DNA of 4,019 nucleotides from a virus (lineage: Duplodnaviria; Heunggongvirae; Uroviricota; Caudoviricetes): the IMG/VR virus record IMGVR_UViG_2703718782_000019. The stretch is one strand, 5' to 3'. The notes beneath the pieces are model-generated. The model was not told where the DNA came from. It saw nothing but the letters and a program-made list of their open reading frames with translations, and did no database searches. Shown in pieces: positions 1 through 2,943 of the stretch; positions within the stretch are counted from its first letter, which is position 1; the number at the start of each line of letters is the position of its first letter. The translations under genes were made by a program, and so were the position numbers.

Positions 1-1139
1 CTGACGGTAATGGTCCCTGATGGCCACCGTTCCGGTGCACGGGAGTCCCGGGGGAAAGCTTTGCCCACTGTTTTAACGAGATCGCCTTCAATCTGGTTCG
101 CGGACAGTTTTCCCAGAACCCGACAGTTCTCGTTAATCGTGACGTTGTTGAGCGTCCCGGAGTTCGCATTCACGTTACCACTGATATCCGCATTTTTAGC
201 AGTCAGCTTTCCGTCCGGTGTCAGGGAAAATGCCGGTGGATTTCCACCACTGGTAATGGTGGGGGCCGTCAGGCGCTTCAGGAACACGTCGTTCATGAAT
301 ATCTGGTTGCCCTGCGCCACAAACATCGGCGTTTCATTCCCGTTTGCCGGGTCAATAAACGCGATACGATTGGCGGCAACCAGAAACTGACTCAGTTTGC
401 CTTCCTCTGTATCCTCCATGCTGAGGCCAAGCCCCGCGACATAATGCTTACCGTCTTCGGTCTGCTCAATTTTGACAGCCCACATGGCATTCCATTTATC
501 GTTGGCGTCCTTCCACTCTTTCGAAAACTCCTCCAGTCTGCTGGCGTTATCCTCCGTCAGCTCGACTTTTTCCAGCAGCTCCTTGCCGAGATGGGATTCG
601 GTTATCTTGCCTTTGAAAAAATCCAGGTAACCTTCCACATCATCGCTCGCCCGACCAACGGCTTCCACGAATGCCGATTTGCCAACGGTGTTCACACTGC
701 GGATATAAAAGTAATAATCATGGCCCGGTTTGATATTGATACTGGCGGCTATCCAGTACAGCGCCGTACCAAGATAGCGGGCTGTGGTTTCAACCTGCCT
801 GATATCGGTAATCCGCGTTTCCGAGAACCAGAACTCAAATTGTACCGTCGGATCATAAACCGCAAGATGCGGCGTGGCGGTTATCTGAAAATAGCCCGGT
901 GTCAGCTCAATCCGAGACGGCGCTGCCGGTGCGGCAATCCGGAACGATACCGATGCCGGATCGCCCTGCTGTCCCCACGCATTTACCGCCCGGACTGTCA
1001 ACCTGTAGTTCCCCGGCGCCAGTTGCGTGAAGCGGTATGTGGTTTCTGTCGTCCTGGCCGTGCTGACCAGCCGCTCACTGCCGTCATCCGCTGCCACGGT
1101 CAGGCGAAGCAGGAAGCTCACGCCCTTCACCACCTTAAC
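1..1139 (-). CDS. J: Tail tip host-specificity protein J, C-terminal portion; partial (continues beyond window start) and in a different frame from the upstream J ORF
   Basis: Manual minus-strand translation in the frame with codon tops at 1139, 1136 ... 5 is open from 1139 to position 1. It reads [40 protein letters not shown]...[47 protein letters not shown]...[27 protein letters not shown]...[61 protein letters not shown]...[20 protein letters not shown], which is near-identical to the distal part of lambda J as I recall it. The frame stays open upstream to 1350 (in-frame TGA at 1350-1352; possible starts GTG 1349, ATG 1292), but the J-like sequence begins only at about 1139. Not in the ORF track, presumably because it has no stop within the window. 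Confidence 0.88.
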
Positions 1140-2943
1140 CGTTATCCACGATGGCTTCTTTTTCCGGCACGTGCTGCACCGCCGTGATGGCAAAGGTGCC
1201 GTCCGTGTTTTCCCGGACGGAGACACAGCGGAACAGGCGACGGCGCAGTGACGGCAGGGAGAGTCCCCACACCCCGTATGTCTCCACACCATCAGGCAGG
1301 GTACTGACCTGTATCCGGTCCGGCGCGGGGTGTGCGGTGATGTCCACACTCACCGGCTTACCGCTGCCGTTAATCAGGTTCACCGCCGATGTACCTGTCT
1401 CCGGCAGGGTAACCTCACGGTCCAGCGTCAGGGTGCGGGTGGCAGCATCAATGGACAGGACACGTCCGCCGGTCAGGGTCCCGGCATAGTCGTTATCACA
1501 GATTTCAATAATGTCACCGGGTGTGTGCCGCAGCCCCTGAGACCCGAGCGTGAAATCCACCGTCTGCGTTTCCAGCAGTTCGGTCTTTATCACCCACAGT
1601 CCGGCACGGTGGGCCTGACCGCGGCTGGTACAGCCGAACGCGTCCATCTTCAGCAGGTTGCGTCCGTAGCGCAGTATGGCTTCCGGGTCTTCCACCAGTT
1701 CCGTGGAGGTCTGCCAGCCGTTCTGCGGGTCGGTGTAATTCACCTCCACCGCCGTGTGCCGGTCCTTCAGGGCACTGAAGCTGTAGCGGAATCCCACGCC
1801 GTTATCATCCACCACCACATCGCTGTTGGTGTACGGCCACACCACATCCGACGGGCGGTCCTGAACGAACGTCAGCGTCTGACCGTTCCATACCGGCATA
1901 CAGCGCATCGCCGAGCAGAAATCACTGAGAACGTCCCACGCCTTACGCTGTTGTGCCAGGTACGCATTAAAGGTCATCCGCGGCTCGGTCCCCCCGAAAC
2001 CATCCGGGACCGTCTGGTCGCAGTACTGCCCGATGGCATACAGCGCCCACTTGTCCACATCCGCCGCCCCCAGACGTTTTCCCATGCCGTAGCGCGGGTG
2101 AGTCAGCATGTCCCACAGACACCAGGCCGGGTTGTTGCTGTATGCCGGTTTCAGACTGCCGTCCCAGATACCACTGTACGTGCGTTTTTCCGGGTCATAG
2201 TTTGACGGTACCTGGATGATGCGACCGCGGATATGGTAGTTCACCGTCATCTGCTGGCCGCCGAACTGCTCCGCATCCACCTGCAGCCCCACAATGGCCG
2301 TGTTCGGGTAGCACTGTTTCACATCGATGATTTCGGTGTATGACGACCACAGCGTCTTATTCTGCAGCTGGTCCGTGGTGCTGTCCGCCGTCTCCCTGAC
2401 CATCCGGATGTTAAAGGGCCGGGGAGGCAGATTATCCAGAATCACCGAGGCCAGGAACTGTGAGGTGGTCTTGCCGTTAATGGTGACGTCCTTTTCTGTC
2501 ACCCAGTTACCGTTACGCTGTAACTGAATCAGCAGGCGGACGGATGCCGGGTTACGGTCACCCTTTGAGGTGGTCTCCACCAGTGACTGCACCCCGAAGG
2601 TAACCCGCAGGCGGTCAATGTTCGCGGACGTAATGGTGCGCGTCACCGGCTTTGCCTTCGTCACTTCCACGCCCAGTCCGGTTTCAGCTCCGGAGGACTC
2701 AAAGCCTTCCGGTGGTGTCTGCTCCTGCTCCCCGGCACGCCAGACCGCGGTCACACCGTGTATCACGGGATTGCCGTCCGTGTCCGTCAGTGGGGTTTTG
2801 TTCACCAGAATACTCTGCAGTCCCTTCACCGGACCTTCTATCGGTCCCTCACCAATCGCATCAATCACACTCATCATCTGCGTGGATTTGAGATTATCCT
2901 TCGCCTCACGAGGCGTGTGTGCCTTACCGCCACCTTTTCCCAT
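1135..2943 (-). CDS. J: Tail tip host-specificity protein J (central tail fiber), N-terminal 602 codons ending at a premature TAA
   Basis: ORF-track 602-aa ORF. It starts [22 protein letters not shown]... and ends ...[32 protein letters not shown], collinear with and highly similar to lambda J, which I recall as about 1132 aa. ATG at 2943-2941 is preceded by GGGGAAGG (Shine-Dalgarno-like). The stop at 1135-1137 lies where lambda J continues. Confidence 0.93.

Follow-up and report, generated by a model that had tools for sequence, protein, structure and literature searches.

A probable pseudogene of the lambdoid tail-tip gene J in which 127 nucleotides are replaced by TT

[quoted passage not shown] A different arrangement is found in the tail tip of phage T5, which spreads the equivalent domains over separate proteins: pb3 holds the hub and FNIII, while pb4 holds FNIII and the central fibre, so that T5 is formally comparable to a J that has been split (PMC10721106).

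The locus described here lies in a window of 4,019 nt, this being the whole stretch of DNA that was analysed. It shares its domain order and residue numbering with lambda J (1132 aa; PDB 8iyk, 8k35, 8xcg), to which it aligns at very high identity over residues 1-602 and 645-1022. Unlike lambda J, the window is devoid of residues 603-644, its reading frame is broken, and its sequence departs from that of lambda J at about residue 980 and beyond, in the direction of the receptor-binding end. Nor does it match T5. The T5 proteins contain complete domains in a conserved arrangement, whereas the break in the window cuts through a domain and the resulting arrangement occurs in one sequence. Most probably, the sequence represents a pseudogene of the lambdoid tail-tip/host-specificity gene J that arose through one complex deletion, in which 127 nt gave way to the dinucleotide TT.

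Gene layout and the break in J

The minus strand of the window comprises the tail end of a lambdoid tail gene cluster, namely the last codons of K, gene I, a spacer and J (Table 1). Among phages the window is best matched by vB_EcoS-783R2 and among genomes by O26:H11-type E. coli prophages, and in both the matching DNA is annotated as K, I and J, with J placed downstream of K and I. Gene I is identical at the DNA level to the O26:H11 prophage copy, where it is annotated as 'tail assembly protein', and the annotation in vB_EcoS-783R2 is 'tail tip assembly protein I'. The gene that follows the spacer is a homologue of J (TipJ), as judged by its domains and its position, and its most fitting classification is that of a J pseudogene.

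The start of gene I differs between the window and the reference annotation. The frame in the window runs for 226 codons from the ATG at 3966, and the RefSeq annotation on the identical DNA of NC_013361.1 (6153-6734 of L002) begins 99 nt further in, giving a protein of 193 aa. This RefSeq start may have been called too short.

Table 1. Coordinates of features in the window (minus strand unless left empty) and of Pfam domains in the intact relative (residues)
Feature	Pfam	Position	Strand	Basis and content
Gene I, tail tip assembly, 226-aa ORF		3286..3966	-	ORF list; upstream of J
Non-coding I-J spacer, 342 nt		2944..3285		No ORF in tail-gene orientation; identical in O26:H11
J N-terminal reading frame, 602 codons and premature stop		1135..2943	-	Hub domains (FNIII-A, Phage-tail_3/HD) and part of linker; lambda residues 1-602
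Junction dinucleotide TT (AA on plus strand)		1137..1138	-	Stands where the intact allele has 127 nt
Premature stop TAA, made by the junction		1135..1137	-	ORF list and translation
J C-terminal part, +1 frame, 378 codons, runs off the window		3..1136	-	Open frame; lambda residues 645-1022
FNIII-A	PF24801	residues 86-207		Pfam, intact relative
Phage-tail_3	PF13550	residues 331-492		Pfam, intact relative
Ig_J	PF24421	residues 610-714		Pfam, intact relative
Ig_J_second	PF24489	residues 716-818		Pfam, intact relative
Phage_Tail_Tip	PF09327	residues 845-972		Pfam, intact relative
Receptor-binding domain (Ig_GpJ_C)	PF12421	residues 1001-1131		Pfam, intact relative

One continuous frame of about 1130 codons is a defining feature of gpJ, and here it is interrupted by the TAA at 1137-1135 and continued in the +1 frame. 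A preliminary description of this DNA had already placed the end of the N-terminal ORF at this stop and had J resuming one base out of register. Both statements hold: the minus-strand ORF 2943..1135 encodes 602 aa before the TAA, and the +1 frame of the same strand is free of stops from 1136 to window position 3. The third minus-strand frame is full of stops. Upstream of the junction, the alternative frame had been described as open without being J-like, and it is indeed open upstream only to 1349, with an upstream part that bears no resemblance to J. The earlier estimate that about 42 codons are missing was likewise borne out by alignment to the J chain of PDB 8iyk, in which the N-terminal part ends at G602, the sequence restarts at K645, and residues 603-644 (42 aa) are absent; the C-terminal part was aligned to residues 640-1022 of that chain. 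The junction itself, GATAACGGTTAAGGTGGTGAAG, reads as it had been quoted, and it can be read directly from the sequence that removal of a single T would create an in-frame DNG-KVVKG fusion.

The distribution of domains follows this break. The two hub domains, PF24801 (E = 8e-42) and PF13550 (E = 1.4e-38), are both present in the 602-aa ORF and are the sole Pfam domains kept there. Translation of the +1 frame yields the second Ig domain, PF24489 (E = 2.8e-40), and the central fibre domain, PF09327 (E = 1.7e-34). A complete Ig_J domain (PF24421) joined to the hub via the linker is not found, as only positions 36-104 of the 104 in the model are recovered, and these in the other frame. The lost residues 603-644 thus comprise the end of the hub-to-fibre linker and positions 1-35 of 104 of the Ig_J/FNIII-1 model, or about its first third. 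In the C-terminal part, the last two thirds of FNIII-1 are followed by FNIII-2, the helical shaft and the central fibre. The window edge corresponds to lambda residue 1022, and the receptor-binding domain is located past it. It had been proposed for this gene that the C-terminal part of J contains the receptor-binding region, which agrees with the PF12421 match in the intact relative and with published work (PMC11101478).

The lesion and the natural alleles of J

The broken gene has its nearest relative in a prophage of E. coli O26:H11 str. 11368, where gpJ is intact at 1131 aa (WP_000514713.1; NC_013361.1 2540263-2543658); identical copies of this gene exist in many O26-type genomes. Across its whole length, with gene I and the spacer between I and J included, the window is 99.9% identical in nucleotide sequence to O26:H11 str. 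11368 and many related genomes. The intact relatives span 4144 bases against the 4019 of the window, and all of them carry the 125 extra bases at one point. In the alignment, the intact allele reads GATAACGG, followed by 127 nt (GGCGCAC...GACACGCCG) and AAGGTGG, while the window reads GATAACGG, TT and AAGGTGG. The lesion is therefore the exact replacement of 127 nt by TT. On balance 125 nt are lost, which equals 42 codons minus one base, and the TT supplies the T of the TAA stop. Where the O26:H11 gene has this segment and a single frame of 1131 aa, the window has TT and four substitutions, all of them synonymous and at third positions (2650, 2209, 1912 and 1492, in the codons for K98, V245, S344 and N484). 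No differences from the O26:H11 allele occur in the 1134 nt 3' of the break. A near-identical intact homologue (99.9%) together with a length change that is not divisible by three (-125 nt) points to a pseudogene, and a single complex deletion of this kind accounts for the loss of codons as well as for the change of frame. Among complete RefSeq E. coli genomes, no 100% match to the 5' J part of the window was found.

The prophage of the relative carries an insertion of its own. In NC_013361.1, an IS66-family element, ISEc22 (tnpA, tnpB, transposase), lies directly between J and lom (10611-12946 of L002), 3' of the intact J, and the window stops short of that point.

To place the junction among other sequences, several collections were searched. 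A 42-nt query centred on the junction, which would still score with a 1-nt gap, gave no BLAST match in 5,426 complete E. coli genomes or 50,697 phage records, and a 120-nt query gave solely two-piece matches, spanning 245 nt. In exact searches, the TT junction was absent from GTDB representative genomes, IMG/VR and JGI metagenomes, and an explicit pattern for the in-frame DNG-K junction, GATAACGGNAAGGTGG, was likewise absent from IMG/VR, GTDB representatives and JGI metagenomes. A look-up among 153 billion gene positions returned no record of the exact 602-aa product. The 20-nt left flank by itself served as a positive control and matches at least 120 IMG/VR stretches, and it was from the stretches matching this flank that a survey of natural alleles was drawn. 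Measured from GATAACGG to GTGGTGAAGGG, the spacing amounts to 130 nt in 68 of the 121 alleles surveyed and to 127 nt in another 51, together 119, as compared to 5 nt in the window. The two remaining alleles, L068 and L096, both have small frameshifting defects in the stretch that encodes the linker and FNIII-1: L068 (IMGVR_UViG_2531839193_000006) has lost 22 nt between CTGACGG direct repeats, and L096 has many single-base deletions that resemble sequencing errors. Among the IMG/VR J alleles whose 3' part is readable, roughly 100 in number, about 14 (~14%) have premature stops downstream of the segment. Broken J genes are thus common among these alleles. The inactivation of J in prophages is a kind of event that is already well known, and this particular allele was found in no collection searched.

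The L068 allele provides a useful comparison for how the lesion formed, as its frameshifting deletion affects the same linker/FNIII-1 segment. It is a case of classic slippage between repeats, whereas the two breakpoints in the window share no substring of at least 4 nt, show no microhomology and are joined by a 2-nt filler. Slippage between direct repeats was accordingly rejected for the window. The TT matches neither flank, and an origin from a parent allele with TT at either side (GGTT... as left flank or ...TTAAGG as right flank) was also rejected, as neither TT flank was found in IMG/VR; in 124 natural alleles the segment begins with GGCG, GGCC or TGCC. Because the TT matches no flank, no microhomology exists and no natural IMG/VR allele has TT at either side, the event is read from the sequence as a deletion with a 2-nt filler and not as repeat slippage. 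The lesion also appears to be recent, since the out-of-frame 3' part is base-for-base identical to intact alleles and has not decayed. With its undecayed 3' part, this allele may be regarded as a clean example of very recent inactivation and as a possible strain marker.

Two options had been put forward in the preliminary description, a defective J in a prophage and a natural in-frame length variant without the 42 residues to which a 1-nt sequencing error had been added. The first fits all of the evidence, with near-identical intact alleles from which the window differs through one frame-shifting replacement of 127 nt by TT, while for the second no such allele was found. In favour of the in-frame variant is the fusion that results when one T is removed, but the junction it calls for is missing from all five collections (IMG/VR, GTDB representatives, JGI metagenomes, the complete E. 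coli genomes and the phage records), 119 of the 121 natural alleles keep a segment of 127 or 130 nt, and the segment is complete in the closest allele, which is 99.9% identical. Moreover, the fusion would be without the first 35 of the 104 FNIII-1/Ig_J positions and is not plausible as a neutral length variant. We consider this option very improbable.

A somewhat less remote, albeit still unlikely, alternative is that the true J is intact and that the net loss of 125 nt is an artefact of the assembly or polishing of a repeated prophage gene. An E. coli genome has J-like sequence at a median of 3 places and at as many as 15, which makes the gene prone to mis-assembly. The absence of the junction from every collection searched also speaks for an artefact, and some IMG/VR alleles, such as L096, have obvious errors of the sequencing type. 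Against this, the usual sequencing errors are single-base insertions or deletions and not a loss of 127 nt with a 2-nt filler. The flanks are clean as well: 2.9 kb contain only 4 differences, all synonymous, and 1.1 kb contain none. Furthermore, the TT is foreign to both flanks of all surveyed alleles, so that the collapse of paralogues would not create it. A genuine deletion in J is thus the preferred explanation.

Consequences for the tail tip and readings that keep J functional

If the deletion is genuine, it would take out codons 603-644 and shift the frame by +1. Translation begun at the start of J would then halt at the TAA after residue 602, and the product would consist of the baseplate-hub part only. 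What remains of FNIII-1, together with FNIII-2, the alpha-helical shaft, the central straight fibre and the receptor-binding domain, would not be made as part of J, such that the frame shift would cut off the parts that close the tube and bind the receptor. Because these are the functions of the lost parts in lambda, the domain content suggests that the prophage is most likely unable, on its own, to build an adsorption-competent tail tip. Any particles released should be non-infectious unless J comes from another lambdoid prophage of the host. Such complementation by a co-resident prophage might occur, given that strains of this type carry many lambdoid prophages, with the up to 15 J-like places mentioned above. 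The break in J decides whether the prophage makes infectious particles on its own. Its significance is local, and the lesion bears on no open question of tail-tip biology.

An alternative possibility is that the break leaves a functional split J, with the hub part (residues 1-602) accompanied by a separately initiated C-terminal part that either cooperates with it or acts as a soluble receptor-binding protein. Three GTG codons, at 1133, 1130 and 1121, lie 1-13 nt past the stop, the first of them 1 nt after it, and an SD-like sequence, AAGGTGGTGA (1136-1127), is located 5 nt before the GTG at 1121. The division of equivalent domains among separate T5 proteins (PMC10721106) offers a formal precedent, and fragments of lambda J from residue 713 have been solved alone (PDB 8xcj, 9wca) and bind LamB (PMC11101478). 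However, the C-terminal piece in the window would begin within a truncated FNIII-1 and without a linker to the hub, the SD-like AAGGTGGTGA is already present in intact J and does not represent an adaptation, and the arrangement is present in one sequence alone and absent from all relatives, with no hint of selection. There is little chance that this reading is correct. Some independent translation of the C-terminal part is conceivable from the codons present. In an accidental version, reinitiation at a GTG 1-13 nt past the TAA, aided by the native AAGGTGGTGA, would turn J into two cistrons and free a trimeric fibre/receptor-binding fragment, a scenario to which we assign an equally slight probability. 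If it were true, the free fragment could occupy the outer-membrane receptor and serve as a decoy or exclude related phages.

The ribosome might also be imagined to bypass the stop. Translation of prfB involves a +1 frameshift at a stop codon. The shift needed to rejoin the two parts of J is formally similar, being +1 at a stop codon, and a programmed frameshift of the prfB type at GGT-TAA-G would produce a full-length J without the 42 residues. The features of such a site are nonetheless missing from the window: GGU in the P site cannot re-pair in the +1 frame (GUU), the upstream sequence (GTGGATAACGG) has no SD-like stimulatory element at the right distance, and the site is conserved in no relative. 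Recoding is therefore the least probable of the readings considered here and can hardly be credited. An Rfam search for a family that would explain either the junction or the I-J spacer returned no match at E <= 1. The pseudogene remains the reading under which the break in J is best described.

The spacer between I and J

The I-J spacer is separate from the lesion, and its plus strand, opposite to the tail genes, has features of its own. A strong sigma-70-like promoter, TTCACA-16-TATAAT, matching at 11 of 12 positions, is found at 3149-3176, and a terminator hairpin with a T-run follows at 3247-3281, about 100 nt past the promoter, so that the predicted RNA would be about 100 nt long. The -35 and -10 elements, the terminator and the motifs AACTCC and AATCTTCAT are kept in copies from Stx1 and Stx2 phages that are only 74-78% identical overall. 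In total, 147 phage records have a match to this spacer element (window 3120-3285), which lacks an Rfam match and is without annotation in the matching records examined. The predicted RNA fold is not unusually stable (z-score of -1.0). Judging from the sequence, the plus strand of the spacer looks like a candidate for an undescribed or unannotated prophage small RNA gene. The small RNAs AgvB and Pas were considered as identities for the putative RNA and rejected, as they sit in the Q/PR'/lysis region and not between tail genes (PMC4104026; 2026 bioRxiv paper), and a full-text search of the literature found no small RNA between I and J.

A second hairpin, at 3045-3085, has a perfect stem of 12 bp (AACCCCGGTATC-AGCA-GATACCGGGGTT) and is flanked by T-rich runs on both strands. 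Because of these runs, it looks like a bidirectional terminator. On the plus strand, it is positioned between a weak promoter-like site (2975-3004, 9 of 12 positions) and the 3120-3285 element, and in the direction of the tail genes its place would be immediately upstream of the start of J.
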